Shown one piece after another: positions 6,476 through 55,889 of a stretch of DNA of 64,000 nt (the first letter of the stretch is position 1; each line of letters begins with the position of its first letter). The notes beneath the pieces are model-generated. The model was not told the DNA's origin and searched no databases. It saw nothing but the letters and a program-made list of their open reading frames with translations. Both the position numbers and the translations under genes were made by a program. The stretch lies in IMG/VR virus record IMGVR_UViG_3300045988_004821; one strand, 5' to 3'. Source of the DNA: a virus. Taxonomy: Duplodnaviria > Heunggongvirae > Uroviricota > Caudoviricetes.

Positions 6476-7009
6476 CTATAATTGTAGGTTGCATTCTTTA
6501 CTTACCTCTTCAAGTTTAATCTCCGAGTCCTTAAGTCGTTTCTTATGAACTCTGAATCTCATTAGTGAGATGATGATACCAACTAAAGGAACAGCATACA
6601 AGTACCAAACATCATATACCTTTGCAGTAATCTGTGTAATAGTCAAGTCTTGAGCTATGTAGCTGATTGCTGATACGGCTAGTAATGTTGCTAAGAAGAA
6701 AACCAGTATCATAACAATATTCAGACAACCTCTGGCATGGTATTCATGCTTAATGCACTTATTCTTTTCGTCAACAACCCTGTTGTAGTCATTTGTAAAG
6801 TCTCTGTAGAAAGCTTTCAAGTATTCTTGAGTGTAGCCTTCAAAGCAACCTGTACCGTACCAATAATCACCACCAAAGTGTGCTATGATACCGGTATCCC
6901 CATTCGGTTTGGTTACTCTCAAAGAGGTGTGATGACGAGTATCTTGATAGTCTATTTTGTATCTTTCTTCATAAATCATTTTCCAATCCCTCTCAGTCGT
7001 TTGTTCCAC
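6476..7009 (-). CDS. hypothetical membrane protein (177 aa)
   Basis: Hydrophobic segment LNIVMILVFFLATLLAVSAISYIA. Confidence 0.5.
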   Translation of the reverse strand: MEQTTERDWKMIYEERYKIDYQDTRHHTSLRVTKPNGDTGIIAHFGGDYWYGTGCFEGYTQEYLKAFYRDFTNDYNRVVDEKNKCIKHEYHARGCLNIVMILVFFLATLLAVSAISYIAQDLTITQITAKVYDVWYLYAVPLVGIIISLMRFRVHKKRLKDSEIKLEEVSKECNLQL

Positions 7010-12932: not shown

Positions 12933-13013
12933 TTTTAAAAGATGTTGACAGGCTCTACAAAGTTGCTCTAAAGTCTGTCACATCAAACAACAAATGAGAG
13001 AAGAGAGTAAAAT

Positions 13014-14429
13014 ATGAGCGAATTATTTAAACATGCGCACCTTCATGCAGGTCGAACTGAAAATGGTGCTGTAAACCATACTTCATCAATGTCTGCTCTT
13101 GTGGACTTTTACAAAGCTGCTGGTTCCAGCCGTAGCAATGTAGAAATCTTACCAGACCTGTTCTACAAAGCTTTGCGTGAGGATGTTGATGTTGCAGTTC
13201 GTATTTTACTGCATATGCGAGATGTACGAGAAGGTATGGGTGAGCGTAAAGCCTTCAGAACTGTTTTGCTTCAAGCGATTGAAGACAAAGTTTTAGAACC
13301 TGTACAGGTTCTTCGCATTATGGATAAGATTGCAGAACTTGGTCGTTTTGATGACTTCAAAATCTTCGTAGGTACTCGTTTCGAGACAGATGCCTTCAAA
13401 CATTTAGAAGCAGCATTACTAGACCCTGCAACAGCAGGTTTGGCGGCTAAGTGGTTACCACGAGTCAAACCACGTCATAAGCAGTTTGTAAAACGTTTCT
13501 GCAAGTTTGCCAACTTAAGTGAGAAAGAGTACCGCACACTGTTGTCTGCACTATCTGATACAGTTGAGCAAAAAATCTCTGCTAATGAGTTTGGTAAGAT
13601 TGACTACAGTAAGATTCCTTCACTTGCTGCTGCACGTTACCAAAAACTGTTTAACCGTAAAGATGGAGAACGCTACAAAGCTTACATCGAGTCATTATCA
13701 AAGGGTGAGGCTAAGATTAATGCTGGTGCTGTTTACCCATACGATGTGATTAAATCTGTTAAGTATGGTAATGCAGATGTTGCTAATGAGCAGTGGAAAG
13801 CACTACCAAACTGGATGGCAGAGGGTGAGAACATTTTGTGTATGACTGATGTCTCAAGCTCAATGTCTTGGGTGAATTTCGGTTCAATCACTGCTCTTGA
13901 TATTGGTGTATCTCTTGCACTGTATGTAGCAGAACGCAATACTGGTTGTTTTAAAAATGAGTCAATGGTTTATTCAACAAACCCTCACTTCATCGAACTG
14001 AGTGGTGATTTACGAAACCGTCATCGTCAGGTAATGCGTTATACTGAATATGGTTCAACTAACTTACAAGCAGCTTTTGACCGTATTCTTGAGACAGGTA
14101 AAAGAAACAACTTGACTCAGAAAGATATGCCAAGTAAGCTTATCATCTTCTCCGATATGGAGTTCAATCAGGTTGATGGAGCTAACGGTCGTACAAACTT
14201 TGAAGCAATTCAGAGTAAGTACAAAAAAGCTGGATATGAGATGCCACAACTGGTATTCTGGTACTTAGCAAACCGTAATGGTACTTGCGAAGTATCTGTT
14301 AAGGATAACGGTGTAGCAATGGTATCAGGGTTCTCTCCAGCCACTTTAAAAGCTCTGCTTGGTGGTGAGAAGTTTGACCCAATCAGCGTAATGCTCAAAG
14401 CAGTAATGATTGACCGTTATATCTGGTAA
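13014..14429 (+). CDS. VWA-domain protein with N-terminal helical domain; Ro60 (TROVE-VWA) / DUF2828-like architecture
   Basis: Intact MIDAS motif DVSSSMS in the C-terminal half; N-terminal TENGA motif; 471 aa; sits directly upstream of the tRNA array. Confidence 0.5.
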   Translation: MSELFKHAHLHAGRTENGAVNHTSSMSALVDFYKAAGSSRSNVEILPDLFYKALREDVDVAVRILLHMRDVREGMGERKAFRTVLLQAIEDKVLEPVQVLRIMDKIAELGRFDDFKIFVGTRFETDAFKHLEAALLDPATAGLAAKWLPRVKPRHKQFVKRFCKFANLSEKEYRTLLSALSDTVEQKISANEFGKIDYSKIPSLAAARYQKLFNRKDGERYKAYIESLSKGEAKINAGAVYPYDVIKSVKYGNADVANEQWKALPNWMAEGENILCMTDVSSSMSWVNFGSITALDIGVSLALYVAERNTGCFKNESMVYSTNPHFIELSGDLRNRHRQVMRYTEYGSTNLQAAFDRILETGKRNNLTQKDMPSKLIIFSDMEFNQVDGANGRTNFEAIQSKYKKAGYEMPQLVFWYLANRNGTCEVSVKDNGVAMVSGFSPATLKALLGGEKFDPISVMLKAVMIDRYIW

Positions 14430-14447
14430 AAAGTTTTAAAAAGGGTA

Positions 14448-14476
14448 TTGACAATGTGTTTAATACCCTTTAATAT
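14448..14476 (+). promoter_or_regulatory. sigma70-type promoter (TTGACA-17-TAATAT) upstream of tRNA array
   Basis: Consensus -35, 17-bp spacer, near-consensus -10, A/T-rich upstream tract; a second TTGACA box at 14539. Confidence 0.6.
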
Positions 14477-14594
14477 GTTCTACATAGAAACGAAATGAGA
14501 GCTTTTCTAAGATACTGAAAAATATTTTAAAAAAGTTCTTGACAACCACTAAAAAATAATGTTAAAGTGGTTACATAGAGTTTGAAAAGTTTAT

Positions 14595-14671
14595 CTCTGT
14601 TTAGCTCAGCTTGGTAGAGCGTTCCGTTTGGGGCGGTAAGGCCGGAGGTTCAAGTCCTCCAACAGAGACCA
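14595..14671 (+). tRNA. tRNA-Pro (anticodon TGG)
   Basis: Cloverleaf by eye: acceptor CTCTGTT/AACAGAG, D-arm GCTC..GAGC, T-arm GGAGG-TTCAAGT-CCTCC, encoded CCA; one mismatch in anticodon stem. Confidence 0.6.
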
Positions 14672-14678
14672 AATTAAT

Positions 14679-14756
14679 GTTCCAGTAGACAAAATGGTAA
14701 AGTCACCACTCTTTCAAAGTGGATATTTGAGGGTTCAAATCCCTTCTGGAACGCCA
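14679..14756 (+). tRNA. tRNA-Glu (anticodon TTC)
   Basis: Acceptor GTTCCAG/CTGGAAC, anticodon arm CCACT-CTTTCAA-AGTGG, T-loop TTCAAAT, CCA encoded. Confidence 0.7.
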
Positions 14757-14762
14757 GTTTTG

Positions 14763-14837
14763 ACAGAAGACCAATTACAGCAAACTTAATCTACTCATCT
14801 GAAAGTTAATCGGACAAAGAAGATATTTGGTCTGGTC
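14763..14837 (+). ncRNA. stem-closed spacer element, copy a (AGACCAA..TTGGTCT arms, TTACAGCAA box)
   Basis: One of four copies with conserved ACAGAAGACC..TTACAGCAA 5' end and GGTCTGG 3' end; arm sequence covaries between copies. Confidence 0.4.
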
Positions 14838-14846
14838 ATTAAGAAT

Positions 14847-14923
14847 TGCGGGTATAGAGAAAGGGCGTCTCACATGTCTCATTAGCATGGTATCGGCAGG
14901 TTCGACTCCTGCACCCGCCTCCA
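14847..14923 (+). tRNA. tRNA with CAT anticodon (Met or Ile-lysidine), position 1:72 unpaired
   Basis: Anticodon arm CATGT-CTCATTA-GCATG, T-arm GCAGG-TTCGACT-CCTGC, CCA encoded; T1 opposite C72. Confidence 0.5.
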
Positions 14924-14928
14924 AATTT

Positions 14929-14996
14929 ACAGAAGACCGTTTACAGCAATATTTATTAAATTTTTAGCGGAAAAAATTGAAATATACGGTCTGGTA
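14929..14996 (+). ncRNA. stem-closed spacer element, copy b (AGACCGT..ACGGTCT arms)
   Basis: Same architecture as copy a with compensatory arm change CAA/TTG to CGT/ACG. Confidence 0.4.
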
Positions 14997-15007
14997 ATAC
15001 TAAACAT

Positions 15008-15084
15008 GGTTAGGAAGCACATAAGGTATGTGCGGTCGCCTGTTAAGCGAATGGCACAGGGTTCGAATCCCTGACTAACCGCCA
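15008..15084 (+). tRNA. tRNA-Asn (anticodon GTT)
   Basis: D-arm GCAC..GTGC, anticodon loop CTGTTAA, T-arm CAGGG-TTCGAAT-CCCTG, CCA encoded. Confidence 0.7.
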
Positions 15085-15093
15085 AATTTAAAT

Positions 15094-15181
15094 GTGTCGT
15101 TATCCCGTAGATGGTAGCGGTGGGGACTGTAAATCCCTTGTCATTGAGACTCGGTAGGTTCGACTCCTACACGGCACACCA
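15094..15181 (+). tRNA. tRNA-Tyr (anticodon GTA), long variable arm
   Basis: 88 nt; anticodon arm GGGGA-CTGTAAA-TCCCT; T-arm GTAGG-TTCGACT-CCTAC; CCA encoded. Confidence 0.7.
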
Positions 15182-15186
15182 ATAAA

Positions 15187-15264
15187 GGTTATGTAGTTTA
15201 ATTTGGTTAAAATACTCCCCTGTCACGGGAGATGATGAGGGTTCAAATCCCTTCGTAACCGCCA
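15187..15264 (+). tRNA. tRNA-Asp (anticodon GTC)
   Basis: Anticodon arm CTCCC-CTGTCAC-GGGAG; acceptor GGTTATG/CGTAACC; CCA encoded. Confidence 0.7.
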
Positions 15265-15292
15265 ATTTTGAGAGGGCTATTTAGCCCCTCCC

Positions 15293-15320
15293 TTAAAGGG
15301 TTCTTACGAGTATCCTTTAA
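15293..15320 (+). promoter_or_regulatory. conserved hairpin TTAAAGG-[GTTCTTACGAGTAT]-CCTTTAA
   Basis: Second copy at 18407-18430 has the same 14-nt loop (1-2 changes) and a covarying stem (TAAGG/CCTTA). Confidence 0.45.
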
Positions 15321-15325
15321 AGGAG

Positions 15326-15400
15326 CAGAAGACCAAATACAGCAAGTTACTTAAAATTTCAAGCCAATTTAATTTTGAAAAATTTAAAACTTGGTCTGGC
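15326..15400 (+). ncRNA. stem-closed spacer element, copy c (AGACCAA..TTGGTCT arms)
   Basis: Conserved 5' CAGAAGACC..ACAGCAA and 3' GGTCTGG ends. Confidence 0.4.
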
Positions 15401-15411
15401 TCAACAAATTT

Positions 15412-15545
15412 ACAGAAGACCGTTTACAGCAAAACTTAAACAATCTATTTCTCGGTAAAGAAAAGGCGAAGGTTCGATTCCTTCACTCGGCAGATGTCGA
15501 GTTGGTGTAATGGTAGCACTTAAGATGATAAACAACGGTCTGGTA
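15412..15545 (+). ncRNA. stem-closed element, copy d, containing a circularly permuted tRNA-like module (Y-RNA-like candidate)
   Basis: Outer arms AGACCGTT/AACGGTCT; inside, T-arm GAAGG-TTCGATT-CCTTC, then acceptor-like 7-bp stem ACTCGGC/GTCGAGT closed by loop AGAT, then TG and D-arm GTGT-AATGGTA-GCAC. Confidence 0.45.
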
Positions 15546-15688
15546 ATTATCTTTGTAGATAAGTTATTAAGCTTACCTGTGAGTATGCGACCACAAAGGG
15601 TGAAAGGGTAAATTCTAGATTTAAACCCAAAAAGGCACATCGCTACAGACCTTAAGCAAGTCTGGGTAGCTTATCTACAAAGATAATT
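15545..15688 (+). ncRNA. element bounded by a perfect 19-bp inverted repeat (AATTATCTTTGTAGATAAG / CTTATCTACAAAGATAATT) with 106-nt interior
   Basis: Perfect inverted repeat at 15545-15563 and 15670-15688; interior has a nested hairpin CTACAGAC..GTCTGGGTAG; abuts tRNA-Lys. Confidence 0.35.
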
Positions 15689-15692
15689 TAAT

Positions 15693-15768
15693 GGAAGTGT
15701 AGCAGAATGGTGATGCGGCAGACTTTTAATCTGACAGGCGATGGGTTCGAATCCCTCCACTTCTACCA
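15693..15768 (+). tRNA. tRNA-Lys (anticodon TTT)
   Basis: Acceptor GGAAGTG/CACTTCT, anticodon loop CTTTTAA, T-loop TTCGAAT, CCA encoded; T-stem has a bulge. Confidence 0.6.
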
Positions 15769-15772
15769 ATAT

Positions 15773-15849
15773 GGTTCAGTCGCAGATAAGGTAATGCAAG
15801 GGTCTCATAAGCCCTATGAATGTGGGTTCGATTCCCATCTGAACCTCCA
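15773..15849 (+). tRNA. tRNA with CAT anticodon (Met / Ile-lysidine / initiator-like GGG:CCC anticodon stem)
   Basis: Anticodon arm AGGGT-CTCATAA-GCCCT; acceptor GGTTCAG/CTGAACC; CCA encoded. Confidence 0.6.
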
Positions 15850-15850
15850 A

Positions 15851-15926
15851 GCTGGTATAGTTAAGAAGGTTATAACACTCCCCTGATAAGGGAACATCGG
15901 TGGTTCGATTCCACCTACCAGTACCA
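15851..15926 (+). tRNA. tRNA-Ile (anticodon GAT)
   Basis: D-arm GTTA..TAAC, anticodon loop CTGATAA, T-arm GGTGG-TTCGATT-CCACC, CCA encoded. Confidence 0.7.
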
Positions 15927-15941
15927 ATTTCAATAAAGTTG

Positions 15942-15970
15942 TTGACATTGAGATGTGACTACTTTATAGT
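15942..15970 (+). promoter_or_regulatory. sigma70-type promoter (TTGACA-17-TATAGT) inside tRNA array
   Basis: Consensus -35, 17-bp spacer, TATAGT -10, A/T-rich upstream. Confidence 0.6.
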
Positions 15971-16174
15971 AACCTTAGTTTTCGTTGCGTAGCGTCTATT
16001 TTGCAAATTTAAAATAAATGCAAACGACAATGTTTTTCTGGCAGTAGCTTGATAGGCTAAACACCAGTGAGGTCTTCCAATCCCTCATCAAAGAATTTGG
16101 CGTACTCGCCCACGGTATGATTAATAAGGTGGGCATCTTTAAGGGCTTTCTAAGAGAGTCTTTAAAGATAATTA

Positions 16175-16256
16175 CGGGGCGTATCTCAGCGGTCTTCTAA
16201 ACCGCCGTTAACCGAGTAAGTGGAGTATGCGGGTTCGAGTCCTGCCGCCTCGACCA
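16175..16256 (+). tRNA. atypical tRNA-like element (acceptor/T-arm minihelix; hairpin with TCT in a 7-nt loop where the D-arm should be; possibly degenerate tRNA-Arg)
   Basis: Acceptor CGGGGCG/CGCCTCG, T-arm GCGGG-TTCGAGT-CCTGC, CCA encoded, but no canonical D-arm and no anticodon arm at the expected position. Confidence 0.35.
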
Positions 16257-16399
16257 ATTTAGTTAGCAGATTACTTAGACGACCTTATCGGGTCTTCCTG
16301 TAGGGAGGTGGTCTGTATCTCATGTTTTCCAGAACATGTAAATAATCTGAGAAGGGGCTTTACAGTGTTGAGATAATACGGTAAGCTTCGAATTATAGT

Positions 16400-16482
16400 A
16401 TGGGACGATGTTAAGACTCTAAGGCATGAGCAACGGCTTCCAACACCGTTTCAAAGGGGTTCAACTCCTCCGTCCCATGCCA
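16400..16482 (+). tRNA. tRNA-Trp (anticodon CCA) with extended D region
   Basis: Perfect acceptor ATGGGAC/GTCCCAT, anticodon arm ACGGC-TTCCAAC-ACCGT, T-loop TTCAACT, CCA encoded; D region about 7 nt longer than canonical. Confidence 0.5.
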
Positions 16483-16495
16483 AAGTCTTATTAGG

Positions 16496-16583
16496 GGTAG
16501 GTAGCGGCTAATGGCAGCCAAACAGTCTTGAAAACTGTTGCCACTGTAGAGATACGGTGAGGGTTCGACTCCTTTACTTACCG
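16496..16583 (+). tRNA. tRNA-Ser (anticodon TGA), long variable arm; CCA not encoded
   Basis: Anticodon arm AACAGT-CTTGAAA-ACTGTT; acceptor GGTAGGT/ACTTACC; discriminator G. Confidence 0.65.
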
Positions 16584-16840
16584 CCTAATAAGATTTACAC
16601 CGTCCATGCTTGCTCGCATTTTCGGTTTATCCCTCGTGTATTGTCGTACACACTGATAAAGCACCTAGTAGGTGTCACGGAGAAGAGATAATATCAAGCT
16701 CTCCAAAGGTTCTAGTCACCGGATTAAACAAGACTATGCAAAGACCTTTTTAGGTCTTTTTAGAGGGCTTCTAAGGTTATTACAGCTTGTTGTGGAACCT
16801 TGTTGCTTAGGTTCTTAGAAGTTCTCTAAAAAGATTTAAT

Positions 16841-16918
16841 GGGAGATTGACGGTAATTGGTAAACCTACCATCCTTAGAAGTTGGTGTTTGAGGGTTCGA
16901 ATCCCTTGTCTCCCACCA
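16841..16918 (+). tRNA. tRNA with Leu anticodon TAG but short (class-I) variable region
   Basis: Acceptor GGGAGAT/GTCTCCC, Leu-like D-arm GGT-AATTGGTAA-ACC, anticodon loop CTTAGAA, discriminator A, CCA encoded; 78 nt. Confidence 0.5.
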
Positions 16919-16925
16919 AATTAAT

Positions 16926-17001
16926 GCAGGTGTAGCAAAATGGTTATGCGGCTGACTCTTAATCAGTAAGACGATGGGTTCAATTCCCTCCACCTGTACC
17001 A
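16926..17001 (+). tRNA. tRNA-Lys (anticodon CTT)
   Basis: Anticodon arm GCTGA-CTCTTAA-TCAGT; acceptor GCAGGTG/CACCTGT; CCA encoded. Confidence 0.6.
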
Positions 17002-17007
17002 AACAAT

Positions 17008-17083
17008 GGGGTCATAGTTTATATGGTTAAAATTCGAGTTTTGCAAACTTGGGAACTGAGTTCAATTCTCAGTGACTCCACCA
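17008..17083 (+). tRNA. tRNA-Ala (anticodon TGC)
   Basis: Anticodon arm CGAGT-TTTGCAA-ACTTG; T-arm CTGAG-TTCAATT-CTCAG; CCA encoded. Confidence 0.7.
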
Positions 17084-17089
17084 ATTAGT

Positions 17090-17164
17090 GCATCCATAGT
17101 TTAAACGGGAAAATTACAGTCTTCCAAACTGAGGTTGAGGGTTCGATTCCCTCTGGATGCTCCA
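17090..17164 (+). tRNA. tRNA-Gly (anticodon TCC)
   Basis: Perfect acceptor GCATCCA/TGGATGC; anticodon loop CTTCCAA; T-arm GAGGG-TTCGATT-CCCTC; CCA encoded. Confidence 0.65.
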
Positions 17165-17171
17165 AATTAAT

Positions 17172-17247
17172 GCTCCTATCGTATAATTGGCTATTACGGT
17201 TGCCTTGTAAGTAACTTATCAGGGTTCGAATCCTTGTTGGAGCACCA
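17172..17247 (+). tRNA. tRNA-Thr (anticodon TGT)
   Basis: D-stem CGTA/TACG; anticodon arm GTTGC-CTTGTAA-GTAAC; T-loop TTCGAAT; CCA encoded. Confidence 0.65.
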
Positions 17248-17344
17248 ATTTAGAGGTCAAGTGAAAGACCGCTTTGAGTCAACTGAAGACCGTAACAAAT
17301 CCCACGGAGTTGAGTTAGCGGCACAACTTCAGACCTCTTTTCAC

Positions 17345-17419
17345 ACTCGCTTAGTTTATATGGTAAAACATCACCCTTACAAGATGAAGAAGAAGGTTCA
17401 AGTCCTTTAGTGAGTACCA
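17345..17419 (+). tRNA. tRNA-Val (anticodon TAC)
   Basis: D-stem GTTT/AAAC; anticodon loop CTTACAA; T-arm GAAGG-TTCAAGT-CCTTT; CCA encoded. Confidence 0.65.
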
Positions 17420-17420
17420 T

Positions 17421-17498
17421 GTTCCAGTATCCCAATTGGTAGAGGATGCAAGCTCAAACCTTGTACTAGTGACGGTTCGAATCCGTCTTGGAACACCA
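17421..17498 (+). tRNA. tRNA with Leu anticodon CAA but short (class-I) variable region
   Basis: Leu-like D-arm TCC-CAATTGGTAGA-GGA; anticodon arm GCAAG-CTCAAAC-CTTGT; T-arm GACGG-TTCGAAT-CCGTC; discriminator A; 78 nt. Confidence 0.5.
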
Positions 17499-17503
17499 AT
17501 TTT

Positions 17504-17579
17504 GCAGGATTAGTTCAAATGGATAGAGCAACAGTCTACGAAGCTGTTAATAGGGGTTCGAATCCCTTATCCTGCGCCA
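17504..17579 (+). tRNA. tRNA-Arg (anticodon ACG)
   Basis: Perfect acceptor GCAGGAT/ATCCTGC; anticodon arm ACAGT-CTACGAA-GCTGT; CCA encoded. Confidence 0.7.
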
Positions 17580-17598
17580 ATTTAAAGAGGCTATTTAG

Positions 17599-18156
17599 AT
17601 GAGATATTTGAAGTATGCTTCATGGATTTTCTTAGCTTTGTTAGAGCCATTTGCAGCAATCTTAGCAGTTATCTTAGCACCTTTCGTAGTTCCATTCTAC
17701 AGTGAGAAGAAAGGACATCTGCCTTTCGGGTTCAGATGGATGGAAACTTATGACAACCCAATTGATGGTGATGAAGGTCACGTTAAAAGATGGGCTAATA
17801 TTAGATGGATTGGTAAACTAGGTGTCTACATGCAAAGAGTCGGATGGCTCTGGAGAAACAAAGCTTATAACTTCTCTTACCATGTATTAGGAAGAGATGT
17901 AAAAGATGTTACTAAGTGGAAAGGTAATATCAACGTAAGTTCTGACCCTGAAGATAATCAGACAGGTTATCTCCTAATGTGGAACAGTAATGCTTGGGGA
18001 TTATTCGCTTTTATCCCATCAATTAAAATCTTTGGTAAACAATTCTACTGGAGAATTTATGTTGGATGGAAGCTAAAAAGTGTTGTCCCAGAAGAAAGAG
18101 CATTCTCAAGGGAAAGAGTTATGTTGGCATTCTTTATTCACCCACTAAGAAAGTAA
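17599..18156 (+). CDS. hypothetical membrane protein encoded inside the tRNA array (185 aa)
   Basis: N-terminal hydrophobic stretch WIFLALLEPFAAILAVILAPFVVPF; flanked by tRNA genes. Confidence 0.5.
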   Translation: MRYLKYASWIFLALLEPFAAILAVILAPFVVPFYSEKKGHLPFGFRWMETYDNPIDGDEGHVKRWANIRWIGKLGVYMQRVGWLWRNKAYNFSYHVLGRDVKDVTKWKGNINVSSDPEDNQTGYLLMWNSNAWGLFAFIPSIKIFGKQFYWRIYVGWKLKSVVPEERAFSRERVMLAFFIHPLRK

Positions 18157-18164
18157 AGATTTAA

Positions 18165-18240
18165 AGGGGATTAGTTTACAAGGTTAAAACCTCGGTCTTT
18201 GAAATCGAAGAAGTTGGTTCAATTCCAACATCCCCCGCCA
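18165..18240 (+). tRNA. tRNA-Gln (anticodon TTG)
   Basis: Anticodon arm TCGGT-CTTTGAA-ATCGA; T-arm GTTGG-TTCAATT-CCAAC; CCA encoded; A1 opposite C72. Confidence 0.65.
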
Positions 18241-18242
18241 AT

Positions 18243-18321
18243 GCTCCATTACTCCAATTGGCAGAGAGGCCAGACTTAAAATCTGTGTTATGTATCGGTT
18301 CGAATCCGATATGGAGTACCA
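18243..18321 (+). tRNA. tRNA with Leu anticodon TAA, Leu-like D-arm but short variable region
   Basis: D-arm CTC-CAATTGGCAGA-GAG; anticodon loop CTTAAAA; T-arm ATCGG-TTCGAAT-CCGAT; discriminator A; 79 nt. Confidence 0.55.
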
Positions 18322-18326
18322 AATTT

Positions 18327-18402
18327 AGCGGTATAGCATAACTGGAAATGCAACAGTCTCTGAAGCTGTCCTATTAAGGTTCAAATCCTTATGCCGCTGC
18401 CA
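18327..18402 (+). tRNA. tRNA-Gln (anticodon CTG)
   Basis: D-stem GCAT/ATGC; anticodon arm ACAGT-CTCTGAA-GCTGT; T-arm TAAGG-TTCAAAT-CCTTA; CCA encoded. Confidence 0.6.
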
Positions 18403-18406
18403 CTTC

Positions 18407-18430
18407 TAAGGGTTCTTACGAGAGTCCTTA
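18407..18430 (+). promoter_or_regulatory. conserved hairpin TAAGG-[GTTCTTACGAGAGT]-CCTTA (second copy)
   Basis: Same loop as 15293-15320 with covarying stem. Confidence 0.45.
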
Positions 18431-18433
18431 AAT

Positions 18434-18509
18434 GTGGCCTTATCATAAATGGTAATGACCCATGCTGTGAACATGGTCTATACGGGTTCAAATCCCGTAG
18501 GTCACCCCA
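18434..18509 (+). tRNA. tRNA-His (anticodon GTG)
   Basis: D-stem TCAT/ATGA; perfect anticodon arm CCATG-CTGTGAA-CATGG; T-arm ACGGG-TTCAAAT-CCCGT; no encoded G-1. Confidence 0.7.
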
Positions 18510-18515
18510 ATTTAT

Positions 18516-18591
18516 AGTCCAAGTAGCTTATATGGTTAAAGCGCGTGTCTGAAAAACATGAGAAGAGGGTTCAAATCCCACTGGACTACCA
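18516..18591 (+). tRNA. tRNA-Phe (anticodon GAA)
   Basis: Anticodon arm CGTGT-CTGAAAA-ACATG; T-loop TTCAAAT; CCA encoded. Confidence 0.65.
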
Positions 18592-18607
18592 ATTTCAAAG
18601 GTGCTTA

Positions 18608-19342
18608 ATGAAAGAGATGACAGAACAAGGTAAGGAGATTTTTAATCTCTTAAAAACCGGTAAAGGGTTCTCTAACCCACTTATCACTGGTGCAGCAGTT
18701 CTCGGTGGAACCGTAGCTGCTTCTACATCACTTGTAAGCTCTATTAGTTCTGTAACAGACCCTACAATGAAGGAGAAACTTGTTGCTGCTGGACTTACAA
18801 CAGTCCTTCTAAACAGCTTTACAACAAGCCTTACAAGCACTACAGCAACTACTAAAACTCTGACAGACTACGGTCAAAAGTCTATTGATGAGTTTTCATC
18901 ACGTATGCAGGTAGCAAAGGGGTATTCCAATGTTATGGGTGCAGCAGGAGAACAAGTTGGTTGTACACCATTCAGTGGTATCATGGGTGTTGCTACAGAG
19001 TATGGTCAAAAAGCTATTGACATGATGAACAGTACACTAGATAGTGTTAATGGTGTGTTAAGTGACTTGCAAGATGCTATTGATAAGGGTCTTGATACTG
19101 TTTCTGATTTAGCTAATCAGGCTGTTAGTAAGATTAATGAGGGTATTTCAAAGATTACAGCTTATGCAGATGAAGTTGTGCAGATGATTGAAGAAGAAGC
19201 TGCCCTTATTGCAGAGTACCTTAAAACGAATATCAATGGGTTCTTAGCAGGTATCTTACCAGACTGGTTTGATGATGCCTGTAAAACTGGTGTAATTGAC
19301 ACTATTGCAACACCAGAAATGAAGAGCGCATTACAGAAATAA
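18608..19342 (+). CDS. hypothetical protein with hydrophobic and Ser/Thr-rich N-terminal region (244 aa)
   Basis: Start moved to the ATG at 18608 (SD AAGGTG upstream) because the track start at 18545 overlaps tRNA-Phe. Confidence 0.5.
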   Translation: MKEMTEQGKEIFNLLKTGKGFSNPLITGAAVLGGTVAASTSLVSSISSVTDPTMKEKLVAAGLTTVLLNSFTTSLTSTTATTKTLTDYGQKSIDEFSSRMQVAKGYSNVMGAAGEQVGCTPFSGIMGVATEYGQKAIDMMNSTLDSVNGVLSDLQDAIDKGLDTVSDLANQAVSKINEGISKITAYADEVVQMIEEEAALIAEYLKTNINGFLAGILPDWFDDACKTGVIDTIATPEMKSALQK

Positions 19343-19343
19343 T

Positions 19344-19436
19344 GGAAGATTAACCCTAAAAGGTAAGGGAGCAGTTTGCTAAACTGCCAGTAGCTGAGAA
19401 ATCGGTGTACCAGTTCAAGTCTGGTATCTTCCTCCA
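19344..19436 (+). tRNA. tRNA-Ser (anticodon GCT), long variable arm
   Basis: 93 nt; perfect anticodon arm GCAGT-TTGCTAA-ACTGC; T-arm ACCAG-TTCAAGT-CTGGT; CCA encoded. Confidence 0.7.
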
Positions 19437-19440
19437 ATTT

Positions 19441-19516
19441 GAATCCGTGACAGAAATGGCTATGTGCCTGTCTGCAAAACAGGTTTATAAGGGTTCGAGT
19501 CCCTTCGGATTCTCCA
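19441..19516 (+). tRNA. tRNA-Cys (anticodon GCA)
   Basis: Perfect acceptor GAATCCG/CGGATTC and anticodon arm CCTGT-CTGCAAA-ACAGG; CCA encoded. Confidence 0.7.
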
Positions 19517-19553
19517 AGTTATTTTACTCTCTCTCAATTAAAATAATAATAAT

Positions 19554-19613
19554 GCCCTGCTATCAGTATTCTTCCTTTCGCTACCGAAGAGTATTTTTAG
19601 ACAGGGCTTTTTT
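19554..19613 (+). terminator. rho-independent terminator closing the tRNA array (GCCCTG..CAGGGC + TTTTTT)
   Basis: Long GC-clamped hairpin followed by T6. Confidence 0.65.
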
Positions 19614-19688
19614 ACAGAGTTATACTTTATAAGAAGCCTTATACAGTATGTCTCTGACGTACATTGTGGTTTCTCCTTGACGGTCTCT

Positions 19689-45725: not shown

Positions 45726-46085
45726 TTATGGGAACAAACACTTAATGTCATCGTTTTTGAAAACGAAACTTGTGTAGTTATGACCATCAACATCCAACCA
45801 AACAGCCTGAACATCTACACCATCAAGATTCTGGTAAAGCTCTTTGATGAAGTGGTCTTTCACAATCTGGCTACTAGTGGTTTCCAGCTTGATGTTTGAG
45901 ATTGCTGAACCTACAGCCATATAGCCCATGACACGTTTCTTCTCAGTATGCTTAATCTTACCATCTTTGTAAGCCATAATGAGATTGGAGAGAATCTTCA
46001 CACCATAATACTTTTCAAGGTGAGTGGGTACGCCATAAAAGCCTAATGCGAAGTTTTCAGAGTGGATAATGTTTTCACGTTTCAT
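45726..46085 (-). CDS. hypothetical protein (119 aa)
   Basis: Minus-strand ORF. Confidence 0.5.
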   Translation of the reverse strand: MKRENIIHSENFALGFYGVPTHLEKYYGVKILSNLIMAYKDGKIKHTEKKRVMGYMAVGSAISNIKLETTSSQIVKDHFIKELYQNLDGVDVQAVWLDVDGHNYTSFVFKNDDIKCLFP

Positions 46086-55076: not shown

Positions 55077-55889
55077 ATGAATATCAATGTAGAACAAATG
55101 CTTGAAGAAAAAGGTATTGACGAAGCATTCTTAATCAATGCCGTAGAAAGCATGGCTATGATTCTTCGTGGAAACAACTATACAGAACAGTTTATGCCTG
55201 CAAGCTATAACCTGCCTAAAGACAAGTCTGATAACGGTGCTTTTGCAGAACAGGTTAATATGATGCTGTGTGACAAAACACTTGCTTTAGCATCTATTGT
55301 TGTAGGTGTTGATGCTCTTGCAGAGTTCATTTTTTATGAGATGCAGAAAAATGACTATATTGCCATGACCTCTGAAGAAAAAGACTCGCTACTGCTCTTA
55401 GGTTATGATGAGCTAGTTAACCTATTAATTTCGTCAACGAGTGCTGTTATGGCTGCTCTTGAGAAGCGCATGGAAGAGAAGCTTTCACGATATGAAAAAC
55501 TTGATTGGGGTGTAGAGGAATTAAACCCACGAATCAAAGAGATTATCCAGCAAACCAAAGATTCTTTGGAAGAAGCTGTAAAAAATGATTCTGTAGCTGA
55601 CATAGAGCCACTTCAGGTGAAAGTTGCATTGATGATTCCAGCCATCTCCACGATGATGAATATCGTTGCACTAATCCAGCTTTCACAGATGATGGGCACA
55701 AGCATTGAGTTCATTGAGAGTATGACTGGTGGTGTGAGTATGCAAGCAATCAATGATGTTCTGGTGAGTATTGGTGCTTCAATCATTGAAGAGAAGCTGC
55801 GCATTAACTTTGGTGATGATTTTGTGAAGCAAATCTCAGCTATGGCTGAAAAAGAGTATTCACAGACTAATACTGACCAACTGCACTAA
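55077..55889 (+). CDS. hypothetical protein (270 aa)
   Basis: Plus-strand ORF; hairpin plus T-run downstream. Confidence 0.5.
   Translation: MNINVEQMLEEKGIDEAFLINAVESMAMILRGNNYTEQFMPASYNLPKDKSDNGAFAEQVNMMLCDKTLALASIVVGVDALAEFIFYEMQKNDYIAMTSEEKDSLLLLGYDELVNLLISSTSAVMAALEKRMEEKLSRYEKLDWGVEELNPRIKEIIQQTKDSLEEAVKNDSVADIEPLQVKVALMIPAISTMMNIVALIQLSQMMGTSIEFIESMTGGVSMQAINDVLVSIGASIIEEKLRINFGDDFVKQISAMAEKEYSQTNTDQLH

Follow-up and report, generated by a model that had tools for sequence, protein, structure and literature searches.

Conservation of Ro60-Y RNA particles extends from bacteria to humans, and what they do is only partly understood. Circularly permuted tRNA genes and two-piece transfer-messenger RNA (tmRNA) form a second point of comparison for this work; in them, the 3' half (the T arm and the 3' strand of the acceptor stem) precedes the 5' half (the 5' acceptor strand and the D arm). 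We relate both to a locus in a 64,000-nt stretch of phage DNA (Caudoviricetes; IMG/VR record IMGVR_UViG_3300045988_004821), which we call the window. In this locus, a gene for a protein of 471 amino acids (aa) is followed by tRNA genes and by RNA elements, designated a to e, that are closed by stems. By comparative sequence analysis, elements a-d are members of an undescribed RNA family that lies beside DUF2828 genes of many unrelated phages. We estimate at roughly 0.7 the probability that the region encodes a phage ribonucleoprotein (RNP) module of the Ro60/Y-RNA type that uses another protein family and another RNA motif.

Several described systems are informative here. In Mycobacterium smegmatis, the acceptor stem of YrlA RNA is 7 bp long; RNase P was shown to cleave this RNA within the acceptor loop, and the RNA then receives CCA (PMC4201824). 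The Ro60 protein of phage phiLo binds two adjacent Y-like RNAs (Yrl) and the host PNPase (PMC12135203). A 2024 preprint described gp130 of phage Bas63, whose gene is immediately upstream of tRNA genes, as "highly similar in structure to Ro60", and reported that deleting it impairs growth on hosts with the Ppl defence system (PMC11482910, PhageMaP). Its authors guessed that some annotated "tRNAs" near gp130 are Y RNAs, and did not identify them (PMC11482910). Bas63 is a Felixounavirus, and positions 13014-15700 of our window are 94-98% identical to many Felixounavirus genomes (97% for Salmonella phage Felix O1). On the basis of genus and synteny, Bas63 gp130 is almost certainly the orthologue of the 471-aa protein, with which it shares its genus, a Ro60-like structure and a position directly upstream of tRNAs. 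An earlier model-made note on this DNA (the sequence-only reading) knew of no description of such a protein paired with such RNAs in a phage of this type. Its claim to novelty is partly pre-empted by the preprint, which has the Ro60-like protein and the Y RNA guess; the RNAs and their family-wide motif were not identified there, and our candidates sit in inter-tRNA spacers rather than in annotated tRNA genes.

A Ro60-like protein in a separate sequence family

The protein gene is located as follows.

13014-14429, + strand: gene for the 471-aa Ro60-fold protein (Pfam DUF2828 and DUF7788; predicted helical ring plus VWA domain, with the MIDAS (metal-ion-dependent adhesion site) motif DVSSS at residues 279-283)

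The sequence-only reading had described this open reading frame (ORF) as encoding a C-terminal VWA domain with an intact MIDAS, and this is borne out. The protein belongs to both Pfam families, with scores above the curated cut-offs for DUF7788 (PF25043; residues 275-455, E = 4.6e-43, 147.5 bits against 27.1) and for DUF2828 (PF11443; E = 2.4e-29, 102.8 bits against 29), and it also matches PHROG 850, "RNA-binding protein". Its DVSSSMS motif occupies residues 279-285, and we regard the MIDAS as intact because residues D279, S281, S283, T349 and D381 are unchanged in 38 homologues (40-88% identity).

The same reading likened the architecture to that of Ro60, which holds for the predicted fold and the DUF2828 profile, but not for the TROVE sequence match. 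When profiles were compared with PDB sequences, four of the five matches were to Ro60/TROVE proteins, none of them significant (E = 0.23-0.45), and the printed Ro60 alignment covers the MIDAS motif in the VWA region. We also compared structures. An AlphaFold2 model made with the 38 homologues (predicted local distance difference test, 85.8; predicted template-modelling (TM) score, 0.85) was searched against the PDB with Foldseek, and the top ten matches were all Ro60 proteins, from Thermus phage phiLo, Xenopus laevis, human and Deinococcus radiodurans (Rsr). These matches have E values from 8e-10 to 1.2e-7 and alignments across both domains; their TM scores are 0.40-0.63, or 0.54-0.63 for all except Rsr. 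Ro60 is the best structural match along the whole chain, and the model has the helical-repeat ring closed by a VWA domain with MIDAS that characterizes the Ro60 fold. Because Foldseek finds Ro60 while sequence matches to it are not significant, we conclude that the 471-aa protein is, as modelled, a structural homologue of Ro60 within the separate sequence family DUF2828/DUF7788.

Homologues at 29-46% identity are present in 710 phage records, whose hosts include Vibrio, Aeromonas, Campylobacter, Listeria, Staphylococcus, Enterococcus and Bacillus. The gene's names in relatives are "RNA-binding protein", "vWFA protein", "DUF2828 family protein" and "hypothetical protein", and the homologues in mycobacteriophages already carry the label "Ro-like RNA binding protein". 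According to Pfam's description and a record note, DUF2828 is also found in plants.

An RNA family beside DUF2828 genes

The sequence CAGAAGACCNNNTACAGCAA occurs exactly four times in the window, at 14764, 14930, 15326 and 15413, each time on the + strand; 0.2 copies are expected by chance, and none of 100 shuffles reached four. These copies correspond to the four stem-closed elements with conserved ends that the sequence-only reading had described, and the ends are paired in the predicted fold of each. In elements a-d alike, (A/U)AG is followed by a stem that varies, UUACAGCAA and an interior rich in A and U, after which come the stem's 3' strand and CUG; in element a, the motif is TTACAGCAA at 14775-14783. 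Single-copy folding z-scores are modest (-1.1 to -3.1), and therefore the case for a real structure rests on comparative evidence, not on folding energy.

In the distant loci that we read, a common design adjoins the DUF2828 gene on the gene's strand. It has a stem of 7-9 bp whose sequence varies; a linker of 0-3 bases leads to (A>U>G,C)CAGCAA, after which come an interior rich in A and U, the opposite strand of the stem and UG. Three copies lie immediately 3' of the DUF2828 gene in Mycobacterium phage Finnry, two lie upstream of it in Campylobacter phage F371 and three upstream in Listeria phage LP-083-2. Enterococcus phage EFDG1 and Yersinia phage P778 also carry the design beside the gene, and in Aeromonas phage 4_4572 the copies number at least eight, some of them 4 kb away. 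We then scanned 65 further IMG/VR DUF2828 loci (39-46% identity) with a descriptor of the design, which gave 80 matches on the plus strand and 23 on the minus strand, compared with about 17 and 11 in shuffled sequence. A copy is found within 1 kb of the gene in 45 of the 65 loci, with clusters 27-420 nt past the stop codon and 3-250 nt before the start codon.

The stem is supported by covariation. In a fixed-register pseudo-alignment of 61 elements (A5), the seven inner base pairs form in essentially every element, and each of them shows 3-5 kinds of pair; the percentage paired is inflated since the elements were selected for pairing, although the variety of the stem beside an invariant motif is not affected by this selection. 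The covariation score is 0.81, in contrast to 0.20 for shuffled elements and at most 0.17 for slid registers. Thus the closing stems vary and yet pair, as the sequence-only reading's structures would lead one to expect.

We built a covariance model, R1, from 32 short elements in a trimmed alignment (A6) that is limited to distant phages and includes no Ounavirinae. Its consensus is AAGGaUgcuUACAGCAA...AAaagcAuCCUGuu. In the window, the top three R1 matches are elements b, c and a, and the elements are as follows.

14761-14838 (core 14767-14836), + strand: element a, short stem-closed RNA in the tRNA-Glu/tRNA-Met spacer; R1 32.3 bits, E = 1.5e-6
14927-14997 (core 14933-14995), + strand: element b, short stem-closed RNA in the tRNA-Met/tRNA-Asn spacer; R1 37.5 bits, E = 5.1e-8
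15329-15400, + strand: element c, short stem-closed RNA; R1 35.3 bits, E = 2.1e-7
15410-15546, + strand: element d, closing stem and UUACAGCAA (15424-15432) around a permuted tRNA-like domain; from fold and orthologue alignment
15546-15692, + strand: element e, RNA of ~145 nt with a 23-bp closing stem; z-score -5.7, with 0 of 200 shuffles as stable

Full-length, significant R1 matches define a provisional DUF2828-associated ACAGCAA family, to which a-c belong by this measure; element d matches R1 only locally (11 bits) because of its ~100-nt insert. Weak R1 matches at 45865-45920 (- strand) and 55537-55595 (+ strand) lie inside ORFs and were dismissed. In 51 other loci (460 kb, both strands, E <= 0.01), all 31 R1 matches are on the strand of the DUF2828 gene, and, counted from coordinates, 26 are within ~1 kb of it. 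A tRNA lies within 4 kb in just 25 of 73 DUF2828 loci, and most of the other 48 carry the element, which therefore accompanies the DUF2828 gene rather than tRNA arrays or promoters.

Elements a and b are each separated by ~10 nt from the adjoining tRNA on either side. In Felixounavirus, a 4-bp outer helix beyond an internal loop (AGA/G) appears to lengthen the closing helix; this outer helix is UGAC/GUCA in element a and UUAC/GUAA in elements b and d, and its pairing is ambiguous for c. Element e is possibly a divergent fifth member of the module, and this membership is uncertain. Its inner hairpin, CAGAC-CUUAAGCAA-GUCUG, resembles a minimal version of the UUACAGCAA motif. In phages Moogle, SUSP2 and Sf16 the hairpin is CAAACC-CUUUAGCAA-GGUUUG, and the outer stem, judged by eye, has compensatory changes too. 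Between tRNA-Asp and element c (15265-15325) there are also two hairpins, one of GAGGGGCUAAAUAGCCC type and one formed by CCUUUAAAGG...CCUUUAAAGG, which are nearly unchanged in four Ounavirinae (the window, Moogle, SUSP2 and Sf16).

Across the loci, the RNAs take three forms: minimal, permuted tRNA-like and non-permuted tRNA-like. Short RNAs in many IMG/VR loci have two or three extra internal AGCAA repeats (e.g., locus L037, 5408-5469, and locus L049, 3793-3846), a pattern that suggests multivalent binding. In the literature that we searched, we found no description of the ACAGCAA family, and Rfam 15 has no model of it; searches with the motif string returned only small interfering RNA sequences.

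A tRNA-like module in element d and its relatives

The sequence-only reading described element d as a T arm, a 7-bp hairpin with a 4-nt loop and a D arm, and the predicted fold agrees. In order, it has a closing stem (AGACCGUU/AACGGUCU), a small hairpin, the T arm (GAAGG-UUCGAUU-CCUUC, 15468-15484), the acceptor-like hairpin (ACUCGGC-AGAU-GUCGAGU, 15485-15502) and the D arm (15504-15520). This is the layout of YrlA, in which a T arm, a closed acceptor stem and a D arm are enclosed by a stem that the ends form. Among the four Ounavirinae, the T arm, D arm and closing stem are essentially unchanged, and the acceptor helix occurs as ACUCGGC/GUCGAGU, ACCCUUC/GAAGGGU and ACACGUU/GGCGUGU. It is 100% paired, with double changes in three of its seven pairs, so covariation is seen here as well as in the closing stems. 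By its letters, the acceptor loop of the Moogle orthologue, GCCAAACA, consists of a discriminator, CCA and a linker.

The same layout (closing stem with ACAGCAA, T arm, acceptor hairpin, D arm) lies beside DUF2828 genes in Finnry, EFDG1 and uncultured phages, and several of these copies have acceptor loops that start with NCCA. The Rfam model of YrlA (RF02553) scores 34.2-44.9 bits on such long copies (gathering score, 69). Four of the alignments are full length, and the one in Finnry spans only model positions 23-89, the tRNA-like core. Hence the proposal that d is YrlA-like stands as to arm order and acceptor covariation, and does not stand as to the Rfam threshold and the Ro60-binding motif. 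Two candidates were set aside. A weak YrlA match (18455-18577, 17 bits) runs across the junction of tRNA-His with tRNA-Phe and is an artefact of a dimeric tRNA, and GNCGAAG in d (15466-15472), considered as a Ro60-binding motif, overlaps the T stem and was judged coincidental.

Like permuted tRNAs and two-piece tmRNA, element d has the 3' half before the 5' half, and the joining loop starts with NCCA in several relatives. Unlike permuted tRNAs, d has no anticodon arm, in whose place it has the motif-bearing closing stem, and therefore it cannot mature into a decoding tRNA. With its 7 bp, the acceptor stem of d agrees with what has been noted as the RNase P determinant in M. smegmatis YrlA (PMC4201824). 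By analogy, d may be processed as that RNA is, with an RNase P cut in the loop and addition of CCA.

In some relatives, the motif occurs within a non-permuted tRNA body, where it either substitutes for the anticodon arm or separates the acceptor strand from the D arm. Such copies are at L007 2494-2613, L050 5895-6018 and 6025-6140, L076 6328-6430 and L080 6191-6315, and a 122-nt "tRNA-Val" of phage Aeh1 (L006 9184-9305) probably belongs with them. The over-long "tRNAs" of L007, L050 and L006 keep an acceptor stem with CCA, a D arm and a T arm, and a hairpin followed by UUACAGCAA or AUUCAGCA replaces the anticodon arm. These over-long "tRNAs", which lie near DUF2828 genes, probably do not decode. 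Finnry gene 55 (L001 6520-6735), annotated as a hypothetical coding sequence, overlaps a tRNA-like ACAGCAA RNA at 6523-6651 and is probably mis-called. In EFDG1, the tRNA/small-RNA region of the DUF2828 gene also contains a phage tmRNA (L010 71-421; Rfam 140.6 bits).

Comparison with Ro60 and its RNAs

Compared to Ro60 (Rsr) with Y RNA or YrlA, including phiLo Ro60 with Yrl1 and Yrl2 (PMC4201824; PMC12135203; RF02553), the module has the same HEAT-like ring and VWA/MIDAS. As in Ro60/Y RNA loci, small-RNA genes, often several of them, adjoin the protein gene and share its strand. The RNAs resemble Y RNAs in that the 5' and 3' ends are paired and a conserved motif lies beside the 5' strand, and they resemble YrlA in that one RNA per locus has the order T arm, closed acceptor stem, D arm. 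There are also differences. The 471-aa protein is in DUF2828/DUF7788, without a TROVE match; the conserved motif is UUACAGCAA, not GGUCCGA, GNCGAANG or CGAA; most DUF2828-linked copies, unlike YrlA, are ~60 nt long and lack a tRNA module; and some relatives bear the motif in an ordinary, non-permuted tRNA body.

Resemblance to Dictyostelium Class I RNAs

On the copies from Aeromonas phage 4_4572, Dicty_Class_I_RNA (RF01414) is the sole non-tRNA Rfam family at E <= 1. Four of these copies match it over the full length with 25.7-29.8 bits (E = 0.012-0.14); elements b and c score 21.1 and 15.3 bits (E = 2-4.6), among other equally weak chance matches. The gathering score of 41.5 is not reached by any copy from the window or the Aeromonas phage. 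Kjellin et al. (2021) used a cut-off of >=25 for candidate Class I RNAs (PMC7919456). According to these authors, Class I RNAs are 42-65 nt long, with a 6-bp covarying stem that joins the ends and an 11-nt motif next to its 5' strand; they start with AAG, end with CUGU, are clustered, and are reported to be absent outside dictyostelids (PMC7919456).

Common to both groups are a length of ~55-65 nt, a short covarying end stem, an A/U-rich variable interior and tandem clusters. UUACAGCAA agrees with nine of the 11 nt of the Class I motif CCUUACAGCAA, and is directly past the 5' strand in both. The AAG start matches, the window's elements finish with CUGG and those of the Aeromonas phage with CUGU, and the lengths are 63-72 nt. 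The R1 consensus and the Rfam Class I consensus, GaUcuCCUUACAGCAA...GagAuCUG, are nearly superimposable. Pull-downs that used DdR-21, a Class I RNA, gave Rnp1A/CIBP (a direct binder), GuaB, NdkC and DDB_G0281243, a protein of unknown function (bioRxiv 10.1101/2020.04.05.026054).

We tentatively raise the possibility, which we consider doubtful, that UUACAGCAA RNAs are dedicated partners of the whole DUF2828 branch of Ro60-like proteins, with Class I RNAs, which are abundant and regulated during development, as eukaryotic members that bind a dictyostelid DUF2828-type protein. One candidate for this binder is DDB_G0281243, and dictyostelids may have acquired the module from bacteria or phages. 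In contrast to this idea, the direct binder that has been demonstrated for Class I RNAs is Rnp1A/CIBP, a protein with an RNA recognition motif. Literature searches on DUF2828, UCP015417 and DDB_G0281243 found nothing relevant.

Transcription and neighbouring features

Consistent with the sequence-only reading, the gene adjoins a tRNA array: ARAGORN predicts 25 tRNAs, all on the + strand and spanning 14595 to 19516, the first of them 165 nt after the gene's end. Promoters were predicted as follows.

12945-12974, + strand: promoter upstream of the Ro60-like gene, sigma-70-like (TTGACA-18-TAAAGT, 10 of 12 positions), predicted by consensus match alone
14448-14476 and 14539-14568, + strand: two sigma-70-like promoters ahead of the tRNA/small-RNA array

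No terminator-like site was found on the + strand from 14471 to 19646, from which we infer that elements a-e and the tRNAs are co-transcribed. We rejected the idea that elements a-d are themselves terminators or promoters, as the scans put the promoters before the array and no + strand terminator inside it.

Within the array there is also a strong sigma-70-like promoter at 15942-15970 (11 of 12 positions). Two tRNA-like sequences were not called by ARAGORN: 16175-16253 (Rfam tRNA, 31.7 bits), and ~16400-16485, which has an acceptor stem, a T arm and CCA. Weak tmRNA-type matches cover 15868-16173. Two ORFs lie inside the array, at 17599-18156 (185 aa) and 18545-19342 (265 aa); the array of some relatives has HNH homing endonuclease genes instead (e.g., Sf16 gp31 and SeKF_63). 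In other phages, genes within a few kb of the DUF2828 gene encode an RtcB-like ligase, a phosphohydrolase, DUF1768 and a tRNA amidotransferase (Listeria phage LP-083-2, L011), or RNA ligase 2 (Rnl2; Aeromonas phage 4_4572, L007).

Proposed module and alternative explanations

What the sequence-only reading observed is confirmed and its interpretation is largely supported; of the possible refutations that it named, those on covariation and on linkage to the gene were examined and came out in its favour. Building on the fold, the RNA family, its covariation and its genomic linkage, we propose the following for binding, processing and function. Elements a-d, and perhaps e, would be the cognate small RNAs of the 471-aa protein. 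The promoters at 14448 and 14539 would drive their transcription along with that of the tRNA array. Because a and b lie so close to tRNAs on both sides, the RNAs are likely to be released by tRNA-processing enzymes, namely RNase P at the downstream tRNA and 3' trimming at the upstream tRNA. Their paired ends would then shield them from exonucleases. What the protein would recognise is the terminus of the closing helix plus the unpaired UUACAGCAA beside it, which parallels the recognition by Ro60 of a Y RNA stem and its GGUCCGA or CGAA motif. There would be two types of RNA, the minimal a-c of ~65 nt and d, which, like bacterial YrlA, adds a tRNA-like module that could recruit tRNA-binding enzymes or mimic tRNA. 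Such an RNP would act on RNA in infection, and its function is probably counter-defence or RNA quality control and repair, to judge by analogy with the published work on Bas63 gp130 and phiLo Ro60; the RtcB and Rnl2 genes close to DUF2828 in Listeria and Aeromonas phages also speak for the proposal.

Several results weigh against this proposal. By sequence, the protein is outside TROVE, with no Pfam match to that domain at E <= 1. The kinship with known Y RNAs that the sequence-only reading had seen is not recovered by Rfam covariance models for Y RNA and YrlA, which have no match at threshold on a-d, and no other Rfam family reaches its gathering score on these elements; in the window and seven loci, Rfam at gathering thresholds finds only tRNAs. 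On element d, the YrlA model has no match even at E <= 10. The Ro60-binding motif (GGUCCGA, GNCGAAN0-1G or CGAA) is absent from the closing stem, which has (U)UACAGCAA instead. The descriptor finds no element in ~20 of the 65 DUF2828 loci, including those of Aeh1-like and KVP40-like phages, and the selection of elements for pairing has already been mentioned. Finally, in many loci a single copy lies ~30 nt past the stop codon, which also fits a cis-acting element in the 3' untranslated region (UTR).

It might be that the RNAs are independent of the protein and act as decoys or sponges for a host factor, e.g., a tRNA-targeting nuclease, RNase E, PNPase or an AGCAA-recognising RNA chaperone, in which case a shared counter-defence cassette would explain their proximity to the DUF2828 gene. 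The extra internal AGCAA repeats in many copies and the whole tRNA-like bodies, of either topology, in some copies are what one would expect of decoys, and phage tRNA arrays have been tied to the evasion of tRNA nucleases (cited in PMC11482910). However, the linkage to DUF2828 is tight: the 31 R1 matches share the gene's strand and are usually <=0.5 kb from it, in unrelated phages whose neighbouring genes are otherwise different. Moreover, the fold of the 471-aa protein is that of a dedicated small-RNA binder, and its known relatives bind RNAs that are encoded beside them. We consider independent decoys rather unlikely.

A cis-regulatory role, in which the elements are operators in 5' or 3' UTRs that let the protein govern either its own mRNA or the tRNA transcript downstream, is in our view quite improbable. 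It would account well for the many loci in which one copy follows the stop codon by 27-60 nt or precedes the start codon by 3-250 nt, but poorly for the window, whose four or more copies lie 330-1100 nt downstream of the gene, behind two promoters and among tRNAs. It also fits poorly with Aeromonas phage 4_4572, given its eight or more copies, some of which are 4 kb distant, and a tRNA-like module would be unexpected in an operator.

The idea that the elements are functionless array spacers (processing signals, decayed tRNA genes or, for d, the junction of a tandem tRNA duplication) draws on their position between tRNAs, on the arm order of d, which is that expected where two copies of one tRNA join, and on the spurious YrlA match that adjoining tRNAs yield at 18455-18577, but it is largely refuted and very improbable, as most of the 48 DUF2828 loci without a nearby tRNA still have the element, R1 recognises a-c after training on distant phages, and the acceptor hairpin of d stays paired via double changes between invariant flanks. 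Elements of this kind are found beside DUF2828 genes in Mycobacterium, Listeria, Enterococcus, Campylobacter, Aeromonas and Yersinia phages, and likewise in many IMG/VR contigs without a tRNA close by.

Implications

If the RNP module is as we propose, there is a second, sequence-distinct branch of the Ro60 fold, DUF2828, with its own recognisable candidate RNA partners. DUF2828 is common in large phages, and these candidate partners bear a simple, searchable signature. For a phage protein tied by a knockout screen to the evasion of defence (Ppl), they also supply RNA ligands that can be tested. Several "spacers" and odd "tRNAs" of phage tRNA arrays are reclassified as a result. If, in addition, the likeness to Class I RNAs were due to common descent, a 20-year-old orphan RNA class would gain a hypothesis as to its protein partner.

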